Shown: piece by piece, positions 1 through 47,858 of the stretch
Numbering within the stretch: position 1 is the first letter of the stretch
Layout of the letters: the number at the start of each line of letters is the position of its first letter
NCBI GenBank assembly: GCA_040757555.1
Contig: JBFLWN010000001.1
Coordinates: 53,128-117,127, forward strand
Reading direction: 5' to 3'
Source of the DNA: Patescibacteria group bacterium
GTDB lineage: Bacteria > Patescibacteriota > Minisyncoccia > UBA6257 > GWB1-50-10
Length of the DNA: 64,000 nucleotides
Position numbers and translations under genes: made by a program
Notes under the pieces: model-generated
The model's input: only the letters and a program-made list of their open reading frames with translations
Database searches by the model: none
What the model was told of the DNA's origin: nothing

Positions 1-977
1 TCAAACTCTATGCAACAGGAAATTTTAATGTTTATGATCTTGGCGATCTTCTCTATAAAAAGGGGCTACGGACCAAACGCGGAGAAAAGATTGCTCCAAG
101 TCGTTTGTACGATATGCTGAAAAACCGCGTTTATCTTGGGGAAATTGTCTGGGGTGGTATGCATATAAAAGATGGAAAACATCCGCCACTCATTGATGAG
201 GGAACGTTTTCTGCAGTTCAAAGTATGCTCTCAAGTCATTCACACCATGCGTGTAGACGAAGAAAATACTCGTGGCTTCTTAATGGTTTCCTATTTTGTC
301 CAGATCACGGAAGGAGATTTACCGCCGAATGGCACCTCGACAAAAAACTCGCATATTATCACTGTAGTAACAAACACGGATGTGGACGATATATAGAAGC
401 GTCGAAAATGGAGGAAATGGTATCAGATAAATTCAACGACATACAATTCACAGATGAATTTATAGAAATAGTTACTGAAAAAACAAAAAGAATATTTTAC
501 CGGAGCAAAAAGGAATATGAACGACAACGACAGGGATTTATAAACAGAAAAACCGCACTTGAAGCAAAACGAACATCCGCAGAAAATAAACTCTTTGAAA
601 ATATTATATCGGATGAAGATTTTTCAAGAATACGAAAAGAGATAAATAAGGAAATCGATATCATAGAAGGATCGCTTTCAGAATTAGCGGAGCGTTACGA
701 AATACAAGTTGATATTTGCCAAGAAATCATGCAATTTATGCGAGATATTCGATCCGCCTATGAAAGTGCCTCTCCGACATTAAAACGTCATTATCTGGCG
801 TTCTTCTGGGAAAGATTCGAAGTTCTTGACGGGGTTATAATAAAATCCGTTCCTTCCCTACTTGTTCGTGAACTTTTGAAGGAAAAACAGATATACCTCA
901 AAAAAGAAAATCCCCAATTATCTGGGAATTCTCTTATGTTTTCGGAGGTTATATTAAACTCCTCTCTGGGTGCCTGA
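1..977 (+). CDS. Large serine recombinase, C-terminal part (recombinase domain + zinc-ribbon + coiled coil); 5' end truncated by window edge
   Basis: Frame stays open to position 3; 'YDMLKNRVYLGE' recombinase-domain motif, C-x2-C...HC...C zinc ribbon, long coiled coil. Stop codon lies inside the 3' end of tRNA-His. Confidence 0.7.
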   Translation, partial: KLYATGNFNVYDLGDLLYKKGLRTKRGEKIAPSRLYDMLKNRVYLGEIVWGGMHIKDGKHPPLIDEGTFSAVQSMLSSHSHHACRRRKYSWLLNGFLFCPDHGRRFTAEWHLDKKLAYYHCSNKHGCGRYIEASKMEEMVSDKFNDIQFTDEFIEIVTEKTKRIFYRSKKEYERQRQGFINRKTALEAKRTSAENKLFENIISDEDFSRIRKEINKEIDIIEGSLSELAERYEIQVDICQEIMQFMRDIRSAYESASPTLKRHYLAFFWERFEVLDGVIIKSVPSLLVRELLKEKQIYLKKENPQLSGNSLMFSEVILNSSLGA

Positions 978-1041
978 CGGGGGTCGAACCCGCGACATCT
1001 CGCTCCACAGGCGAGCGCTCTACCACTGAGCTACAGGCACC
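969..1041 (-). tRNA. tRNA-His (GTG) with encoded G-1
   Basis: Cloverleaf read by hand; anticodon loop CTGTGGA; extra 5' G pairs with C73. Confidence 0.85.
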
Positions 1042-2290: not shown

Positions 2291-3268
2291 TTTACGATCG
2301 GGAATTCTCAAGAGAAAATTTCCTTTTGGAATTCCACTTTTGTTCTTGATATGAGTGTTTGCTCGGGTAAGTTCTTTGAGCGAAATATCATGTCCATTGT
2401 TTCGTAATTCCGACAAGAAAACTTTCCATGGGGTAAACTTCGAAAAATACTTTTCAATCACCACCATCTTGGGCCCCCCATAAGTTACTCCCTCTACAAA
2501 TCCATAGTGTTCTGGATTTTCAAGTATGAGCTTCAAGGCAATCATACATGGAATATATCGCTCGGTCTCACGGGGAAGTGAAAATAATTTGAAATATGAC
2601 TTTTCGCCGTCGGTGTGTATTGCCTTCCATATCCTTCCTGGACCCGCATTATAACTTGCGAGTGCAAACCACCAACTTTCCTCTTCACTGAATGTCTTTC
2701 GAAATTCTTGATAAAGGGTTTTCATCTCACTACACGATGCACGTGTCGCGCTCTCGAGTTGTCGTCTTTCATCAATATTATTATCCACCTTCAATCCATT
2801 ATGAATCGCAGTGCTCCGTATAAATTGCCAAAACCCCGTTGCACCCTTTGACGAAACGGCATTTGAATTGAATCCGGATTCTCCGATGCCCACAAATTTC
2901 ATATCAGTCGGCACTCCTTCTTCTTTAAATATTGGATCAATAATTGGTGAATACTCCTTAAGAAGACCGAGATATGAAACTATTCTCCATCTGTTTTTTG
3001 TGTTGGTAAAAAACCGTATCCATTCATCGGTATCTTCCCAAACGCCAAATACCTCAAATGGGACTCGCCCGCCAAAAAAGTAAACCGTATCGGGAATATA
3101 GGGAAAATCTGGAACAGGAAGCGGTGATTTAATACTTTGAATCTGAGCATATACATCTCCGTATCGCTTGTTGTTCTCAACTTTTGTGTCTATAACCAAA
3201 AAAAGAATAAAACACAAAACGAACACGAAAAGATATTTCGGCATTCCTCGTGTATTCGGTGCCATCAT
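2285..3268 (-). CDS. Lytic transglycosylase (SLT domain), membrane anchored
   Basis: N-terminal TM; 'ALASYNAGPGRI' SLT signature. Confidence 0.7.
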   Translation of the reverse strand: MMAPNTRGMPKYLFVFVLCFILFLVIDTKVENNKRYGDVYAQIQSIKSPLPVPDFPYIPDTVYFFGGRVPFEVFGVWEDTDEWIRFFTNTKNRWRIVSYLGLLKEYSPIIDPIFKEEGVPTDMKFVGIGESGFNSNAVSSKGATGFWQFIRSTAIHNGLKVDNNIDERRQLESATRASCSEMKTLYQEFRKTFSEEESWWFALASYNAGPGRIWKAIHTDGEKSYFKLFSLPRETERYIPCMIALKLILENPEHYGFVEGVTYGGPKMVVIEKYFSKFTPWKVFLSELRNNGHDISLKELTRANTHIKNKSGIPKGNFLLRIPDRKK

Positions 3269-3679: not shown

Positions 3680-3713
3680 ATTGTATTAAGTATTAAACAC
3701 TTATTACTAACAG

Positions 3714-3941
3714 AAAATCCGCCGAATGGCGGATTCTTTTGTGCCGCGGGGGTGAATCGCCCGCGACTCAAATACTCGCCGTCGCTCGTATTTGGTCTGG
3801 GCACCACCTCGCGGTGTAATGTGCTCATTACACAACGCTCCGGTGTTCGATTTACCACACACACACAAAGCAGTTTGTGTGCTCCCCGACAAAACAAAAT
3901 CCGCCGAATGGCGGATTCTTTTGTGCCGCGGGGGTGAATCG
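3714..3941 (-). repeat. tRNA-Phe-linked mini-element B: 136-bp structured core bounded by perfect 46-bp direct repeats (3714-3759, 3896-3941) = last 18 nt of tRNA-Phe + trailer hairpin
   Basis: Direct sequence comparison; core homologous to elements at 40.7 kb and 47.7 kb. Confidence 0.8.
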
Positions 3942-4124: not shown

Positions 4125-4823
4125 ATGGAACAAAAAAACAAACAACCCGTTCTCACGGTAGAAGATCTCTCCCTTGTGATCGACGGAAAGAAAATACTGA
4201 AGGATATTTCATTTTCTATAATCCCGGAAGAAGTACTCGCCATTATCGGACCCAACGGATCCGGAAAATCTATGCTTCTCAAAACTCTTGTGGGTATCCG
4301 CACCCCAACATCAGGAACCATCACGTGGGCGCCCAATACGAAAGTTGGATATCTTCCTCAACGATTTCAAGTCGATCATTATCTCCCGATGACTATAGAA
4401 GAATTTCTATCGCTCAAAAAAAATCCTGAATATTCACTAAGTGAAGTTTTTTCACTTGTAAAAATAGAAAAGGGGTGGCGCACGAAAAATCTCGCCCATC
4501 TTTCAAGTGGACAATTGCAAAAAATACTTCTCGCATGGGCGGTTATTGATAAACCAGAGATACTTCTTTTTGATGAACCGATGGAAAATGTCGATATTGC
4601 TGGGCAAGAATCGATTTATCGTCTTCTTTATGAACTCCAGGAGACGCTCCATGTCGCCCTTGTTATCGTTTCACATGATTTAAATCTCGTGTATCGCTAT
4701 GCCGACCAAGTGCTTTGTCTCAACCAAAAAATGCTCTGCTACGGGGCACCACATGATGAACTTACCGAAAAAAGGATAAAAGAACTATTCGACACCCATA
4801 CACTTTTCCATCATACCCACTAA
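4125..4823 (+). CDS. Metal (Zn/Mn-type) ABC transporter ATP-binding protein
   Basis: Walker A GPNGSGKS, signature LSSGQ, Walker B LLFDEP. Confidence 0.8.
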   Translation: MEQKNKQPVLTVEDLSLVIDGKKILKDISFSIIPEEVLAIIGPNGSGKSMLLKTLVGIRTPTSGTITWAPNTKVGYLPQRFQVDHYLPMTIEEFLSLKKNPEYSLSEVFSLVKIEKGWRTKNLAHLSSGQLQKILLAWAVIDKPEILLFDEPMENVDIAGQESIYRLLYELQETLHVALVIVSHDLNLVYRYADQVLCLNQKMLCYGAPHDELTEKRIKELFDTHTLFHHTH

Positions 4824-4826
4824 TTT

Positions 4827-5597
4827 ATGACTGACTATTTTATTTACACGCTTATCTCCGGTGCATTTGTCGCTATTGCGAGCGGACTTATTGGTTCGTT
4901 TCTTGTGTTAAAAAAAATGACGCTTATGAGCGACGCACTTTCACACGTCGCGCTTCCCGGTATCGCGCTCGGAGTAATTTTCAAGTTTGAACCAATCATC
5001 GGAGGCCTCTTATTCCTCTTCCTCTCGATTATTCTCATCTGGGGAATAGAAAACAAGACAAAACTCGCCACCGAATCGATTACCGGCGTTCTTTTTGTGA
5101 CTGCACTTGCGGTAGGTTCAATACTCATCAGTGAAACAGAACTTCTCGAAGCGTTTTTTGGAAATGTCGAAGATATTTCTCCTCTACAACTCCTTATTCA
5201 AACAATTATCGCAATTGGGATTATTGGTATTGTCGCAAAGAATTTCAAGTCACTTATGCTCGTTTCTATCGCTCCCGATCTCACCTACTCCGAAAAAATA
5301 TCGCGAACAAAACTAGAACTCCTTCTCCTTGTTCTCATTGCACTCACCATTTCGATTGGAATTGGTTTCGTGGGAGTGCTCCTTATGAGCGCACTTTCAA
5401 TCATTCCTGCCGTTACTGCGCGGAATCTCTCAAGAAATCTCAAGATGTATATATGGTGGAGTATGTTTATCGCAACTCTATCACTCATCGGAGGAATAAT
5501 CATTTCACACTTCACCCAATCAATGAATCCCGGTGTTGCCACTGTCCTTATTAGTACATTCTTCTTTTTGATAAGTCTCTTCGGAATAAGAAAATAA
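4827..5597 (+). CDS. ABC-3 family metal transporter permease (ZnuB-like)
   Basis: 8 predicted TM segments, adjacent to ATPase; terminator hairpin 5607-5632. Confidence 0.7.
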   Translation: MTDYFIYTLISGAFVAIASGLIGSFLVLKKMTLMSDALSHVALPGIALGVIFKFEPIIGGLLFLFLSIILIWGIENKTKLATESITGVLFVTALAVGSILISETELLEAFFGNVEDISPLQLLIQTIIAIGIIGIVAKNFKSLMLVSIAPDLTYSEKISRTKLELLLLVLIALTISIGIGFVGVLLMSALSIIPAVTARNLSRNLKMYIWWSMFIATLSLIGGIIISHFTQSMNPGVATVLISTFFFLISLFGIRK

Positions 5598-7591: not shown

Positions 7592-8041
7592 ATGTCTTAC
7601 GAAAAAATAGAGGACACCGATGTATTAGAAGAAAATGATGTGGTGGAAAAAGAAAAAACCGAAGGAGAAAATGATGGATTATACGAAATTTCGGTTGAAA
7701 AACACAATAAAGATCAATTTGGAGCATTTGCACAAAGAAAGGAATTAAGGGTTTCGGGAAATCAACTTGATGCACATTATTCTGACCAAACTCCGGATGA
7801 AGTAAACGAGGCAATGGATAACCTCATTGAAGAGGGTGAAGAGGACGGAGGCGAGACATCAGACGAGTTAATTTCCAAAAATAAAAACTTCATTGAGGGA
7901 AAAACTGGAAAAAAAATTGCCGGAATAAAAGCAAAATATTTTATCACAAACGAGCAGTGGAAAAATATGGATGAAAACGAAAGGAAGGAACTCCTTAAGA
8001 AGAAACAAGAAGAAATTAATAATTTGTACATAAAAAAATAA
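7592..8041 (+). CDS. Hypothetical acidic (Glu/Asp-rich) protein
   Basis: ORF with RBS-like context; low complexity. Confidence 0.4.
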   Translation: MSYEKIEDTDVLEENDVVEKEKTEGENDGLYEISVEKHNKDQFGAFAQRKELRVSGNQLDAHYSDQTPDEVNEAMDNLIEEGEEDGGETSDELISKNKNFIEGKTGKKIAGIKAKYFITNEQWKNMDENERKELLKKKQEEINNLYIKK

Positions 8042-8066
8042 GATAGGAGGAAATATTCCTCCTTAT

Positions 8067-8139
8067 GGCGGAGTAGCTCAGTGGTTAGAGCGAGCGCTTC
8101 ATAAGCGTTAGGCCGTGGGTTCAATTCCCACCTCCGCTA
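8067..8139 (+). tRNA. tRNA-Met or tRNA-Ile2 (CAT), elongator
   Basis: Cloverleaf; anticodon loop TTCATAA; Met vs lysidine-Ile not distinguishable from sequence. Confidence 0.8.
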
Positions 8140-8193
8140 CGGAGTAATCCAAATTGCAAAAAAATATACTGATTGATACACTAAATGAAGCTT

Positions 8194-8267
8194 GCGGGTG
8201 TAGCTCAGCTGGTTAGAGCGTCCGCCTGTCACGCGGAAGGTCGCCGGTTCAAGTCCGGTCGCCCGCG
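8194..8267 (+). tRNA. tRNA-Asp (GTC)
   Basis: Cloverleaf; anticodon loop CTGTCAC. Confidence 0.85.
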
Positions 8268-8479
8268 CAAGCAAATATAGAACTGTCCTAAATGGGCAGT
8301 TTTATATTTATTCTGTACGACTGGACTTGAACGGGAAAGGGGTCGGGAAAACGGAAGTTTTCCCGTGGTGGAGCACATGAACCGCTAGGTTCATGAGAGT
8401 GATATTATTCAATATCGCGATGTGAAATGTCCTCGCCCGCGCAAGCAAATATAGAACTGTCCTAAATGGGCAGTTTTAT
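8259..8479 (+). repeat. tRNA-Asp-linked mini-element D: 127-bp core bounded by 47-bp direct repeats (8259-8305, 8433-8479) = tRNA-Asp acceptor 3' strand + trailer hairpin
   Basis: Direct comparison; core homologous to element E at 45.2 kb including two hairpins with compensatory changes. Confidence 0.8.
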
Positions 8480-8514
8480 TTGAAAAATATCAAAAATCGA
8501 GTAAAGTCAGAAAT

Positions 8515-9204
8515 ATGAAGGCAATTATTCTAGCGGCGGGAGAGGGAGCTCGCATGCGTCCACTCACCCTCACTACACCAAAACCACTTGTAACTGTTGG
8601 CGGAATTTCATTGCTTCATCACCTTATTGAAAAATTTCCCCCTCATATAAATGAAATTATTCTTGTTGTTGGGTATCTCGGAGACAAAATAAAAGAAATA
8701 ATAGGAGATGAATATCTCGGAAAAAAAGTTACTTATGTTACACAAACAGAACGATTGGGTAATTTTCACGCATTGAAGTTGTGTGAACCATATCTTAATG
8801 AAGATGAATCATTTTGTATTTTTTTCGCGGATGATCTTATTGATAAAAAAACAATTGAAGATCTTCTCGCTCATGAGCTTTCGGTTGCAGTACACACCAT
8901 AGAGGACCCAAGGAAATTTGGTGTTGCAATTACCGATGAACATATGCACATCAAAGAAATAGAAGAAAAACCCGAACACCCAAAATCACGTCTTGCAGTA
9001 ACAAATGGGATGGTACTTAACAAAAAAATATTTTTATATCCTCCAGAGCCCCATGCAAATGGTGAGTTTTATCTCTCTGTCGCCGTGCATAACATGGCAA
9101 AAGAACACAACATAAAAGCAGTTATCGGAAACTTCTGGTTTCCCGTTGCAACACCAGAAGATATTTTAAAAGCTGAAGAAATACTTCGAGAAAAAGAAAA
9201 TTAG
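8515..9204 (+). CDS. Sugar-phosphate nucleotidyltransferase (NTP_transferase fold)
   Basis: 'KAIILAAGEGARMRPLT' N-terminal NTP-transferase motif. Confidence 0.7.
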   Translation: MKAIILAAGEGARMRPLTLTTPKPLVTVGGISLLHHLIEKFPPHINEIILVVGYLGDKIKEIIGDEYLGKKVTYVTQTERLGNFHALKLCEPYLNEDESFCIFFADDLIDKKTIEDLLAHELSVAVHTIEDPRKFGVAITDEHMHIKEIEEKPEHPKSRLAVTNGMVLNKKIFLYPPEPHANGEFYLSVAVHNMAKEHNIKAVIGNFWFPVATPEDILKAEEILREKEN

Positions 9205-13046: not shown

Positions 13047-13487
13047 TTAATTGAAACGAGTCGAGAACAGTGAATCCACCACGCGCTCAACCGTATCTTT
13101 TTTCCCAATTGATTTAATACGAATTCCATACACTACCGAATCTTCTTTATTTAAATCCAAACAGTTCACAATTTGAAATTTACTTGCATCCACACATGAA
13201 AGTTCTGTAGTATATGAAGTTCCATTTGATAATCCTCCCGAAAGTTTACATTTCTGGCTGTAATCCAAATTTTCCGCCCCCTGTTCCTTAAAATAACAAT
13301 TTAATGTCGCCTCAACTCCACTATCTGCGGCAAAAAGAGCCATACTCGACTTCACGGTGTCGTTTACTTCACGTAATTGATAAAACGTCATCATCCCCGC
13401 AATCACCGAGGCGCTCAACACTATTCCCCCCGTAATAATTGCGGTGAGTATCATTGTTTGTCCTGAGTTTTTCTTCATTTGGTCCAT
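13047..13487 (-). CDS. Hypothetical membrane-anchored protein (distal gene of pilus operon)
   Basis: N-terminal TM, no canonical prepilin motif. Confidence 0.4.
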   Translation of the reverse strand: MDQMKKNSGQTMILTAIITGGIVLSASVIAGMMTFYQLREVNDTVKSSMALFAADSGVEATLNCYFKEQGAENLDYSQKCKLSGGLSNGTSYTTELSCVDASKFQIVNCLDLNKEDSVVYGIRIKSIGKKDTVERVVDSLFSTRFN

Positions 13488-13603
13488 CCCGTTAAAAACA
13501 GATCGCGATCAAAAAACACGATTTGTACTTATATTGCTTATGTTCGACGATAATGTTCATAGTTTTTAAATTAAAATTATATGTGACCGCGGTTTCTAAC
13601 GGG
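13488..13603. repeat. MITE-like ~116-bp element with ~19-bp terminal inverted repeats (CCCGTTARARACMGMKCGCG...)
   Basis: Near-identical copy at 60031-60147; TIRs read directly. Confidence 0.7.
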
Positions 13604-13613
13604 ACTCATATAT

Positions 13614-14222
13614 TTATTGAGATCTTCTACATTGATACGGATCAGTACTTATTTCTATTGGAAGAATTCTCATACTTACCGCCGTCTCAATGTATGTTCG
13701 TGTATCAGATTTTGAGTCTTTTGGTTTCACCGAAAGCGCCACCCCAATTCTCCACGGATTACAATTATAGTCGGGATGTGCTGATGGATTCGTGGATTTT
13801 TTGTATTGTTGTACTCGAAAACAAAGTGTCTCCACTGATACATTCTTTCCGGTGATATTCTCTCCATTTTTTTGTATCGCCTTGTTCGCGTATGAATATG
13901 TTACTGTCTCCCCGTCGACACTCGGATCGTTTGTCTGCATTGTTCGAAATGAAATAGAAGAAAGACATGGTTCGGTATTTATTTGAGGTAGTAATGCTTC
14001 ATATTGAGAGATATCAAAATATCCCATACGTATCTCTCGAGCCATCTGTTCAAGGATGAGATTCAAATTGTTGTTCACCGACATGAGATCAGTGAGATCT
14101 CTCTGTGCCTTTATTCCACTTACAAAGACCCCAATCGCAAGTGACATAAGAATTCCAAACACTGCCATTGCAACCAATAGTTCAACAAGTGTAAATCCTT
14201 TTTTGTTATTTTTTATATCCAT
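13614..14222 (-). CDS. Type IV pilin-like protein (pseudopilin / minor pilin)
   Basis: Prepilin motif 'KKGFTLVELLVA' after short leader. Confidence 0.75.
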   Translation of the reverse strand: MDIKNNKKGFTLVELLVAMAVFGILMSLAIGVFVSGIKAQRDLTDLMSVNNNLNLILEQMAREIRMGYFDISQYEALLPQINTEPCLSSISFRTMQTNDPSVDGETVTYSYANKAIQKNGENITGKNVSVETLCFRVQQYKKSTNPSAHPDYNCNPWRIGVALSVKPKDSKSDTRTYIETAVSMRILPIEISTDPYQCRRSQ

Positions 14223-27690: not shown

Positions 27691-27841
27691 TTATTTTAGA
27701 AGGTATATTAATCTATCCCCTTCACATACCCGTTATTTTCTAACGGGACGAGTTGTTTTTATTATAGCAAATCAACTGACGACTAGTAATAAGTAATTAA
27801 TAACAACAAACAAAAAGAGCCTTACTTTTTACAAGGCTCTT

Positions 27842-28735
27842 TTATTTTACTAATAGCATTTTTTTTGTTTCCGAGAAGTTTCCTGCTTGGAGAACATAAA
27901 AGTATGTACCACTGGAGAGTTGTGATCCATTGAATTGGATCTCATACTCACCAGGAATTTTTTCTTCGTTCACGAGAACAGCCACCTCTCTGCCAAGTAT
28001 GTCATATACCGCAAGTCTTACGTTTGTAATACTTGATACTTCATACTTAATACTTGTTGTGGGGTTGAACGGATTGGGATAGTTCTGGAATAATTTGAAG
28101 GAGTTTGGAATGACTGGTTCGTCCTCAACGCCAACAATCGTGGTGTCCTCAAAATTATCAATTGGATAGGGAACTACCGAAGCGTCGTCTGTCCAACCAT
28201 ACCTATCAAACAAAACAACTATGTCCTCCTCATCAAAAAATTCAAAAGTAAACATAACCTTTTTAATTTTTTGAGTTCCAAGATTTTCAAACGGGCCACC
28301 AACGGGAATAGGATACCATACTGTATATGCCCACCCAGGAATAAATATTCCACCAGCAGAAACAACATCAGAAGACTCCATCACAAAGGAAACATACACA
28401 TGAAAAAATGAATTATTGGGAAAAGTACTTCCAAATTTTTCAAGATACACCCACATTATTGTCGCCTTACTAGGAATATTTTGAATTGGAGTGGTAAGTG
28501 TTTTTTCAAATTTCACCTGTCCGCCATATCCATTCTTTTTGAAGATAAATTTTTGGGATTTTTTAGAATCAGTTCCGATAACGTTGTTTGATATCTCAGA
28601 ATATGCAACTTTAATATTAGAACTTTTTTCTTTCACTCCCCATCCATTCACCGTTCTATTTGTATCAATCTGTCCACTCAAAACGAGTGGGACGAAGAAA
28701 ATAATAACTGCAAGAAAAAGCATCAACTTTTTCAT
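27842..28735 (-). CDS. Secreted protein with T9SS-type (Por_Secre_tail-like) C-terminal sorting domain
   Basis: Signal peptide; C-terminal 'FKLFQNYPNPFNPTTSIKY...VYDILGREVAVLVN...SSGTYFYVLQAG'. Confidence 0.65.
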   Translation of the reverse strand: MKKLMLFLAVIIFFVPLVLSGQIDTNRTVNGWGVKEKSSNIKVAYSEISNNVIGTDSKKSQKFIFKKNGYGGQVKFEKTLTTPIQNIPSKATIMWVYLEKFGSTFPNNSFFHVYVSFVMESSDVVSAGGIFIPGWAYTVWYPIPVGGPFENLGTQKIKKVMFTFEFFDEEDIVVLFDRYGWTDDASVVPYPIDNFEDTTIVGVEDEPVIPNSFKLFQNYPNPFNPTTSIKYEVSSITNVRLAVYDILGREVAVLVNEEKIPGEYEIQFNGSQLSSGTYFYVLQAGNFSETKKMLLVK

Positions 28736-28785
28736 TTTCCACCTCGTTTTTGTTGTTATTAATTGAATTGGGTATCCAATTCTTT

Positions 28786-28814
28786 ACTGTTTGTATTATA
28801 GCACACTCCCCTAG
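28786..28814 (-). promoter_or_regulatory. Sigma-70-type promoter (-35 TTGATT, 17-bp spacer, extended -10 TGCTATAAT); copy 1 of ~115-bp module
   Basis: Read directly; identical module at 32283-32395 and inverted at 30537-30610. Confidence 0.6.
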
Positions 28815-29024
28815 AAAAATCAAGTTTTACCACATCTTGTCAAGTCCTGTTGTTACCAATTACTAGTCACGAGTTACCAGTTGATTGAATATAACACAAT
28901 TAAACCGAACGATATGCTTATATTATCTCTAAATCAAGTTTACGAAGTCCGACTTCGTAAAATTTGGGACGAAAAAACCACACACCAAAAACCCCCGCCG
29001 AAGCGAGGGGTTTTTAATTTTATT

Positions 29025-40720: not shown

Positions 40721-40865
40721 GGGGGAATCGCCCGCGACTCAAAATGTTTCCGTCGAAACATTTTGGCCCGGGCACCGCCTCGCGTACTCGTCTACTGACT
40801 CACATACACTCCGGCGTTCGATTCACCACGCGAAACAAGCAGTTGTTTCGCTTTGGGACAAAATA
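40721..40865 (-). repeat. tRNA-Glu-linked mini-element A (core homologous to B and C; only 9-nt tRNA 3'-end copy remains)
   Basis: Aligned by eye to elements B and C; sits 3' of tRNA-Glu after its terminator hairpin. Confidence 0.7.
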
Positions 40866-45179: not shown

Positions 45180-45210
45180 TACAGAAAATCCGCTTAAAAG
45201 CGGATTTTTA

Positions 45211-45395
45211 TTTGTGCCCGGGGTCGGACTCAAACAAAATTTCATAAACGAAATTTTTTGAAACCTTGCGGTTCCAATACCTCCACCACGGGGAAACTCC
45301 TGTTTCCCCGACCCCTTTTCCGTTCAGGGCCGGCTAAAATAAAAAACAATTGCATTAAATACAATTGTTTTTCTGTTTGTGCCCGGGGTCGGACT
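45211..45395 (-). repeat. tRNA-Leu-linked mini-element E: 143-bp core bounded by 21-bp direct repeats (45211-45231, 45375-45395) = tRNA-Leu 3' end + CAAA
   Basis: Direct comparison; core homologous to element D. Confidence 0.8.
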
Positions 45396-45462
45396 CGAAC
45401 CGACACGTCCTTGCGGACAACAGATCTTAAGTCTGTCGTGGCTGCCATTACACCACCCGGGC
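45380..45462 (-). tRNA. tRNA-Leu (TAA)
   Basis: Long variable arm; loop CTTAAGA. Confidence 0.85.
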
Positions 45463-45548
45463 GTTTTTTAATTCTTTTATATTCTGTTTCAATTTTGAAT
45501 AAAAAACAAGCGCCTTCATTCAACGAAAGCGCTTCTCATAGACAAGCG

Positions 45549-45621
45549 AGGTGTGGGCTGGATTCGAACCAGCGCATGACGGTTTTGCAGACCGCCGCGT
45601 TCACCACTTCACCACCACACC
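45549..45621 (-). tRNA. tRNA-Cys (GCA), copy 1
   Basis: Cloverleaf; loop CTGCAAA; discriminator U. Confidence 0.75.
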
Positions 45622-45643
45622 AAATATGTAAAAGAGCTTTTGG

Positions 45644-45715
45644 AGGCCTGAGTGGGAATCGAACCCACGTATAAGAGTTTTGCAGACTCTTGCCTTACCA
45701 CTTGGCTATCAGGCC
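45644..45715 (-). tRNA. tRNA-Cys (GCA), copy 2 (divergent body)
   Basis: Cloverleaf; loop CTGCAAA. Confidence 0.75.
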
Positions 45716-47541: not shown

Positions 47542-47628
47542 GGAGGCGTGGCTGAGTGGTTTAAAGCGGCATCCTGCTAAGATGTCGACCGGGAAACCGG
47601 TCCGAAGGTTCGAATCCTTCCGCCTCCG
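47542..47628 (+). tRNA. tRNA-Ser (GCT)
   Basis: Long variable arm; loop CTGCTAA. Confidence 0.85.
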
Positions 47629-47815
47629 CAAGAAAACAGCGCATTTATGTGCTGTTTTTGTATGCGGATGCGGGAGCGAGACAACTGCTTGTCTCGCGTC
47701 CGGATTCGAACGCCGGAGCATGCGCAACTCAGTAGAATTGCACGCGAGGCGGTGGCTAGACAAATTCTCTCTGACGAGAGAGAATTTAGTCAAAGCCGAA
47801 TCCTTCCGCCTCCGC
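47611..47815 (+). repeat. tRNA-Ser(GCT)-linked mini-element C: 168-bp core (includes tRNA terminator hairpin) bounded by 19-bp direct repeats (47611-47629, 47797-47815) = tRNA T-loop/acceptor 3' strand
   Basis: Direct comparison; core homologous to A and B. Confidence 0.8.
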
Positions 47816-47858
47816 CAAAATTAGACCCCATCCGAAAAACAGAAAAGTATAAATAACT

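Follow-up and report, generated by a model that had tools for sequence, protein, structure and literature searches.

The first kilobase of the DNA studied here raises the question of why a serine recombinase gene runs into the 3' end of a tRNA gene. The DNA is a 64,000-nt stretch from a Patescibacteria group bacterium (GenBank assembly GCA_040757555.1, contig JBFLWN010000001.1, positions 53,128 to 117,127 of the forward strand), referred to below as the window; it opens inside the gene of a large serine recombinase (LSR), which ends within the gene for tRNA-His. We consider it very probable that the start of the window is the right-hand junction of an LSR island integrated at the 3' tip of tRNA-His. 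The direct observations are the junction itself, its recurrence and geometry across a family of related loci, unoccupied sites in the host's close relatives, and islands of other family members in which both ends are seen.

The LSR open reading frame (ORF) lies on the plus strand in frame 3 (3..977) and is open at the 5' end of the window, which holds the 3' two-thirds of the gene, 324 codons followed by the stop codon TGA at 975-977. The tRNA-His(gtg) gene lies on the minus strand and was placed at 969-1040 by Rfam (68.7 bits) and at 968-1040 by ARAGORN; its cloverleaf is visible in the computed fold, and the extra G-1 of tRNA-His is the complement of base 1041, taken directly from the sequence. 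A first-pass annotation of the window had given the tRNA as 969-1041, which is right with G-1 counted in, and had described a 5'-cut recombinase ORF whose TGA falls 9 nt inside the tRNA 3' end, which also holds: the two genes are convergent and share the 9 nt of 969-977. ARAGORN finds 18 tRNA genes in the window, with this as the only copy of tRNA-His. In our reading, the tRNA gene (969..1041) would be the host target of integration and would supply the B' half of a hybrid attachment (att) site.

The 324 residues encoded in the window comprise a recombinase domain, a zinc ribbon, a coiled coil and a disordered tail, and match Pfam Recombinase (PF07508, E=5.6e-14) followed by Zn_ribbon_recom (PF13408, E=8e-07). 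Over their whole length they match residues 192-515 of P0001 with 100% identity; P0001 is named as a recombinase, has 515 aa and is encoded on a 170,774-bp contig of a Patescibacteria metagenome-assembled genome. The N-terminal resolvase-type catalytic domain of P0001 (PF00239, precomputed) is encoded outside the window. Residues 1-133 match the catalytic domain of the TP901-1 integrase, including the serine motif YCRVST (E=1.1e-15), and residues 215-363 match the C-terminal domain of the A118 integrase. The AlphaFold2 (AF2) model of P0001, with a mean predicted local distance difference test score (pLDDT) of 83.6, shows the catalytic domain, helix E, the recombinase domain, the zinc ribbon and a long coiled coil, in which two antiparallel helices (342-389 and 395-438) are inserted between zinc-ribbon strands. 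The top Foldseek matches of this model are full-length serine integrases in complex with att DNA (E=1.7e-17), at a sequence identity to the solved LSRs of 13-18% over the full length. The final 23 residues are predicted to be disordered (AF2 pLDDT <50), and the codons of this tail coincide with the terminator hairpin, the att arm, the core and the tRNA overlap described below. Judged from sequence and model, P0001 is a complete canonical LSR in which all of the testable defining features are present, and integration between an element site (attP) and a target site (attB) is its predicted activity.

We scanned one genome per species (46 loci) and the JGI metagenomes (80 loci) with the family alignment. 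The scan yielded 109 distinct loci, 88 of them testable, with at least 100 nt downstream of the LSR. ARAGORN reported a convergent tRNA, its 3' end overlapped by the end of the LSR ORF, at 59 of the 88 testable loci, the targets being Asn (29), His (13), Lys (10), Arg (1) and intron-bearing tRNAs of uncertain anticodon (6). Inspection raised the tRNA-joined loci to about 65 of 88, adding about six with group I introns, with cuts at contig ends or, in two cases, mis-picked by the script. At every tRNA-joined locus the LSR ORF lacks a stop codon of its own and is ended by the first stop met in the antisense tRNA, 9-118 nt inside. The three nearest relatives of the window's gene (L001, L066 and L146; LSR 80-82% identical) have the same tRNA-His junction, with TAA as the stop in L001, arising from a compensated acceptor-stem change. 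Other lineages have the targeted tRNA gene within a conserved cluster of host tRNAs, e.g., His-Leu(gag)-Val-Arg. The arrangement of recombinase and tRNA is a family trait and exceeds chance. As a separate observation, group I introns interrupt several of the LSR-adjacent target tRNAs (L002 11583-11767, L027 6900-7107 and L032 11516-11732, all on the minus strand); ARAGORN without its intron mode misses intron-bearing tRNAs, and its anticodon calls for them are unreliable.

The geometry of the junction is fixed. When 61 junctions were aligned on the T-loop, most of them had a 10-nt arm motif (consensus GTTAtAaTAA) beginning at one shared index, with a distance of 36 nt to the T-loop TCGAACC and of 21 nt to the complement of the discriminator base, whichever tRNA is used; a spacer of 10 or 11 nt separates the motif from the discriminator base. 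The motif varies among junctions (GTTATA in 16, GTTAGA in 8, CTTATA in 6, GTTACA in 6, and others). The corresponding window positions are 948 for the first base of the motif, 969 for the discriminator complement and 984-990 for the T-loop. From this alignment and from the comparison with the far ends of islands given below, we delimited an element-side att arm, or P-type half-site, at 947..967 on the plus strand, inside the LSR ORF: GGTTATATTAAACTCCTCTCT, consisting of the distal motif GGTTATATTAA and a 10-nt spacer.

Host relatives without the island were reached through homologs of the neighboring DedA protein. The contigs L147/L148 (DedA 94% identical) and L150-L155 (84%) keep the gene order tRNA-His-ArfB-DedA-SLT-pterin-4a-tRNA-Phe, and their tRNA-His sites carry neither an LSR nor the orphan Rfam RNA motif LOOT (RF03000), which accompanies islands of this family. 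The 3' half of tRNA-His is identical between the window and these relatives, and similarity of the window to the empty sites L147 and L150 stops directly left of GGGTGCC; at the empty sites a terminator hairpin abuts tRNA-His at that point, left of GGGTGCC. At a third kind of locus, L156 (DedA 83%), the same tRNA-His site holds another island, whose LSR is 22% identical to P0001 and ends at the same TGA. The conserved tRNA-His locus is thus polymorphic for insertion: empty in L147/L148 and L150-L155, occupied in the window and occupied by a different island in L156. The LSRs of the window and L001 are 82% identical, whereas the adjacent ArfB-like, DedA and SLT proteins are 58%, 63% and 50% identical; this excess over the flanking proteins points to horizontal movement of the LSR. 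Taken together, the empty sites, the L156 island and the identity of the LSR between the window and L001 argue for a hot spot at which the element is gained, lost and moved horizontally. The first-pass annotation had proposed an integrated element with its body upstream of the window, and the empty tRNA-His genes, along with both island ends in family members, bear this out. In L156 itself, the second-clade LSR (7597-9192) is of 531 aa, and the island includes a LOOT RNA and N6_N4 methylase/ResIII cargo.

The far end of an island was first apparent in L009, at tRNA-Arg, where synteny with the empty tRNA-Arg sites of L008 and L016 puts the end near base 3160; at that point a 7-nt copy of the tRNA tip precedes the arm motif in inverted orientation. 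A crude initial scan for far ends, using the tRNA tip and the reverse complement of each locus's own arm, gave 40 hits vs 31 in the control, barely above it, and was set aside. The search was then made with a shared arm consensus, GAACAKGAGATTATTATAAC, derived from the best hits of that scan, and gave clean ends in 11 loci (L002, L006, L007, L009, L016, L017, L019, L036, L042, L071 and L075). Each of the 11 consists of a T-run or terminator, a 4-7-nt core of tRNA-tip sequence and then the arm GAACAKGAGATTATTATAAC. In eight of them the tRNA junction is mapped as well, giving islands of 7.6-11.4 kb; the other three are far-end arms without a mapped junction. The window arm and the far-end arm consensus GAACAKGAGATTATTATAACC from the 11 loci form a near-perfect inverted repeat, as seen when GGTTATATTAAACTCCTCTCTGGG in the window is set against GGTTATAATAATCTCCTGTTCTGGG, the reverse complement of the far-arm consensus.

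The eight loci with both junctions also narrow down the point of exchange. Within these family members the left and right junctions share only 4-7 nt, and the shared sequences intersect only at index 20-23, which corresponds to tRNA positions 74-71; the center of symmetry of the two arms is at index 22-23. From this intersection, the arm symmetry and the boundary of the empty sites, we place a hybrid att core at 968..974 in the window, with GT at 970-971 as the predicted crossover dinucleotide, equivalent to tRNA-His positions 72-71. The first-pass annotation had proposed to look for a second copy of the tRNA-His 3' segment upstream, and to take its absence within about 100 kb, together with a recombinase embedded in ordinary core genes, as refutation of an island. 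The 22-mer concerned, GGTTCGACCCCCGTCAGGCACC, has a single occurrence in the window, also when 3 mismatches are tolerated, and a search of each tRNA (blastn-short) found no significant direct repeat of its 3' part within 10 kb upstream in 26 family loci. A long tRNA repeat is not to be expected, because exchange by a serine recombinase lies within about 4 nt at the tRNA tip, leaving only 4-7 nt to recur, and a test based on such a repeat is invalid for this class of enzyme.

These results suggest the following course of events. A small integrative island, probably of 8-11 kb, would have inserted at the very 3' terminus of the host's tRNA-His gene through site-specific recombination by its serine recombinase, and the window would start within the integrase gene at the island's right-hand end. 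The att site of the island would straddle the end of the integrase ORF, which would have no stop before the crossover; once integrated, the ORF would read a few codons into the tRNA in antisense and end at the first stop there, the TGA at 975-977. With exchange at tRNA positions 71-72, the tRNA body would be host DNA, and the last 2 nt and the trailer would come from the element; these 2 nt would be identical in attP and attB, leaving the tRNA intact. If the crossover is at 970-971, the stop codon at 975-977 is host DNA, and excision would give the integrase a tail other than that of the integrated state (...SSLGA). The two arms of such an element are near-perfect inverted repeats bearing a GGTTATA-type motif. 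By analogy with L001, the window's island probably contains a replication-type HTH_36 gene, a LOOT RNA and a leftward defense-type operon, and its left junction would be expected to take the form of a hairpin or T-run, then GGGT-CC(A/G)GAACA(G/T)GAGATTATTATAACC.

On the tRNA side, the proposed distal recognition motif of the half-site is the T-loop at 984..990 (TCGAACC on the plus strand, the tRNA being on the minus strand), a choice based on its resemblance to the arm motif. The far-arm motif TATAACC occupies index 41-47 and the T-loop TCGAACC index 36-42, 5 bp nearer the center; read on the other strand, the universally conserved GGTTCGA of the T-loop would play the part of the arm motif at a shorter distance. 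Since the T-arm is universally conserved at a fixed distance from the acceptor tip, such recognition would explain the spread of the family over Asn, His, Lys and Arg tRNAs. A terminator-like hairpin followed by a U-run lies on the tRNA-sense (minus) strand at 897..933, inside the LSR coding sequence: GAGAAUUCCCAGAUAAUUGGGGAUUUUC then UUUUUU, about 35 nt downstream of the tRNA-His 3' end, with a folding energy (dG) of -12.9. It was detected by folding and was not flagged by a simple consensus terminator scan. Comparable hairpins with differing stem sequences were present at 23 of 62 loci at dG <= -5. The hairpin plausibly takes over from the tRNA-His terminator displaced by the insertion. The exact crossover, T-loop recognition by the integrase and the replacement role of the hairpin are details in which our confidence is at best modestly above even.

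An internal copy of the P-type arm, GGTTATAATAAAATCCGTTCC, was found by the far-end-arm consensus scan at 833..853 on the plus strand, 114 nt upstream of the real arm and within the LSR ORF. Almost the entire family has it at this position, conserved at the DNA level; the encoded residues GVIIKSVP form a conserved beta strand in the AF2 model. This copy could be an accessory binding site or the relic of a duplication.

Several observations weigh against an island integrated in this way. The body and left end of the window's own island lie outside the window, and the contig of the nearest relative ends 6.9 kb upstream and does not reach the far end. The crossover position is extrapolated from eight other family members. 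No circular contig with terminal repeats was found as a free element, and neither an excised circle nor a free attP was seen. No motif is recognizable in the trailer-side half of the empty sites, and the terminator hairpin is clear in only about one third of loci. In addition, about 20 loci have no tRNA and carry at the ORF end an arm, a core and a far-arm-type half-site, an attP-like arrangement, in some cases on long chromosomal contigs; for three of them (L017, L133 and L107), no second element is visible within 10 kb.

At the tRNA-less loci, the LSR ORF runs on into a conserved tail (WLRxLxEvRT...). Three of these loci (L002, L031 and L071) are accounted for by tandem arrays, with a second LSR or LOOT downstream and a junction of the form P_A-core-P'_B. 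Pairwise DNA comparisons of attP-like with tRNA-joined loci (L133/L036, L017/L019, L071/L073 and L107/L095) gave no boundary information. Tandem or nested islands were observed in L002 (about 1340-1380), L031 (11440-11520 and 19600-19693), L071 (LOOT at 8007-8127 and 13800-13916) and L016 (2700 and 3901), where the ORF of the upstream integrase ends in the arm, core and far arm of the next island. Such tandem islands imply that hybrid att sites are usable as targets, which is unexpected for serine integrases.

We weighed the integrated island against other explanations of the junction. The recombinase might be a resident, domesticated or decaying gene, inherited vertically beside tRNA-His and mobilizing nothing. 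The window and L001 do share both the site and the downstream synteny, the excised form was not seen, and LSR pseudogene fragments occur at some loci (e.g., L026, L033, L036 and L041). However, the gene is absent from the closer host relatives L147 (94% DedA) and L150 (84%), which have an intact tRNA-His and flank; the LSR is conserved above the flanking host proteins (82% vs 50-63%); the ORF is full length with the catalytic motif YCRVST; and L156 has a different island at the same site, all of which makes a resident gene improbable. We regard as highly improbable a second possibility, that the gene is the integrase of a temperate phage whose prophage lies upstream of the window. LSRs are well known as phage integrases, proteins of that kind give the best structural matches, and the integrase stands at the element end beside att; yet the eight islands with both ends mapped measure only 7.6-11.4 kb, the cargo proteins scanned have no capsid, terminase or tail match (Pfam, PHROGs), and the relatives in IMG/VR are at 31% identity or below.

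The first-pass annotation had also suggested the LSR as the autonomous partner of the mini-elements in the window. These are units of about 130-180 nt with related cores, located at tRNA 3' ends and bounded by direct repeats of 47-51 nt that comprise the tRNA end and the terminator; they stand at 3709-3941 (tRNA-Phe), 8259-8479 (tRNA-Asp), 45205-45400 (tRNA-Leu), 47611-47820 (tRNA-Ser) and 40721-40852. Both kinds of element attach to tRNA 3' ends in the same genome. The long direct repeats of the mini-elements, which include the terminator, are nevertheless unlike the 4-7-nt core of the LSR islands, the window shows no enrichment of the arm motif (22 occurrences vs 32.6 expected), and no copy of it stands beside a mini-element or another tRNA. 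Moreover, the island-free relatives L147/L148 and L150-L155 have the Phe and Asp copies in syntenic positions with 82-89% conservation, and the L009 island lies between such an element and its tRNA. The proposed partnership finds no support in this comparison, and we judge its probability to be close to negligible. No more credible is the notion that tRNA-His is cargo of the element and not its host target. Mobile elements frequently have tRNA genes on board, and this tRNA physically overlaps the ORF, but the same tRNA-His and the downstream ArfB-DedA-SLT genes occur in element-free relatives, this is the sole tRNA-His among the 18 tRNAs of the window, and the targets in other lineages are embedded in conserved host tRNA clusters.

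The content of the islands was assessed at the family loci. Just upstream of the LSR, recurrent genes encode an AAA_25 ATPase with primase/helicase PHROG matches and an HTH_36 protein that weakly matches replication initiators; in the Asn-group islands an HTH_17 (excisionase-like) protein is also encoded upstream of the LSR. The cargo includes type I restriction-modification systems and C5 and N6/N4 methylases, an OLD-family nuclease with an RNase_T/DEAD protein in L001, and a 711-aa reverse transcriptase in L009. No virion family (capsid, terminase or tail) was found among the recurrent and delimited-island cargo proteins of other family loci scanned with Pfam and PHROGs, and the relatives of the LSR in IMG/VR are only distant ones.

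The LOOT motif was found at 12 of the 14 loci scanned with Rfam, and a covariance model built from the Rfam hits recovered it at 51 of about 100 loci. Encoded on the strand opposite the LSR, it precedes the LSR start by 1.7-4.5 kb and heads the leftward cargo operon, divergent from the replication/integrase module. In L001 it lies at 5180-5295 (minus strand) and in L156, beside the unrelated LSR, at 4820-4941 (minus strand); there is none in the window. LOOT is a core component of the serine-integrase islands of this kind. Its conservation reaches past the Rfam model, with ACAACTGAATA upstream and, downstream, a hairpin with the loop GGGCTTTTTG. A further structured-looking element, seen beside tRNA-Arg in L009 (2950-3160) and L008 (17280-17445), has a 3' end resembling a tRNA T-arm and acceptor and a long bidirectional terminator hairpin that takes in the tRNA tip; the L009 island sits between this element and the tRNA.

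In domain order the enzyme resembles the phage-type LSRs (Listeria A118/LI, Bxb1, phiC31 and TP901-1), with a resolvase catalytic domain, a long helix E, a recombinase domain and a zinc ribbon with a coiled coil, and the att sites are likewise short, with imperfect inverted-repeat half-sites and few shared central bases. The proposed distal motif also lies 5 bp further out in the element-type than in the target-type half-site, which is the rule for the LI (A118) integrase, in whose attP half-sites the zinc-ribbon motif is shifted outward by 5 bp relative to attB. Unlike the phage-type LSRs, which target protein-coding genes, the present family targets the tip of a tRNA gene; its attP overlaps the 3' end of the integrase ORF, such that integration would alter the C-terminal tail of the protein, and its carriers are 8-11-kb non-phage islands of Patescibacteria. 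An attP located inside a gene, with integration altering the product, is a feature of SSV1-type archaeal integrases and of integration-dependent immunity in mycobacteriophages. As in those systems, the att core is in the coding sequence of the element and the C-terminal codons become host-derived; they differ in using tyrosine integrases, and the SSV1 integrase gene is split upon integration, whereas here only a disordered tail would be exchanged.

The island also resembles Islander-type or P4-like islands of tyrosine integrases in having the integrase at the island end beside a regenerated tRNA, in targeting the 3' region with tRNA function kept, and in that several islands compete for or stack at one tRNA. 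It differs in that the enzyme is a serine recombinase and only 4-7 nt are shared, while Islander-type islands displace a 15-50-nt tRNA fragment as a direct repeat. The first-pass annotation had remarked that tRNA targeting is more typical of tyrosine integrases, in agreement with a survey in which t(m)RNA genes were used by 44.5% of tyrosine integrases and by 4.9% (14/297) of large serine integrases; the survey describes such use by large serine integrases as previously unreported and in need of proof (PMC7192596). A large LSR catalog for genome engineering makes no mention of tRNA (PMC10083194). The tycheposons of Prochlorococcus are similarly small and tRNA-associated integrative elements that combine a site-specific integrase with replication genes of the primase/helicase type and cargo for adaptation or defense, and carry a tyrosine recombinase in 910 of 937 cases and an LSR in the remainder (bioRxiv 10.1101/2020.12.28.424599); they differ in host phylum and from the present islands in that the latter carry the LOOT RNA. 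In the literature searched, a single paper names both serine recombinases and Patescibacteria, and by its title and abstract it deals with viral ecology. Among these systems, the element is an LSR-mobilized island set apart by the targeting of a tRNA tip, an attP inside the integrase ORF and the LOOT RNA.

Serine integrases are usually seen as enzymes that target protein-coding genes; in this family a whole clade, with >100 distinct loci, uses tRNAs with a defined site geometry, and offers a testable model for the recognition of a tRNA gene by an LSR. The islands provide a first handle on mobile DNA and defense-gene flow in the poorly understood Patescibacteria, with their very small genomes, and give the orphan LOOT RNA a genomic context. 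The integrases are candidates for genome engineering, as their putative landing pad, the T-arm and acceptor tip, occurs naturally in every genome. We tentatively raise the broader possibility, which we think rather less probable than otherwise, of an island class spread throughout the Patescibacteria, in which serine integrases read the T-arm and acceptor tip as attB and hop between tRNA species, the tail swap acts as a state sensor or control of directionality, LOOT serves as a regulatory or replication RNA, and at least two LSR clades, 22% identical, share the same lifestyle.

Three other features of the window were recorded. Two direct repeat blocks, 83-95% identical and about 3.55 kb apart, lie within 27760-32395, with an inverted 86-nt copy at 30533-30618; the blocks flank paralogous ORFs of 297 aa (27842-28735) and 293 aa (31401-32282). 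An 84-nt direct repeat (80% identical) occurs at 13469-13552 and 60012-60095, 46.5 kb apart. Finally, two tRNA-Cys(gca) genes stand in tandem at 45548-45621 and 45641-45715, 20 nt apart, an unusual arrangement in a small genome with otherwise single tRNA genes.

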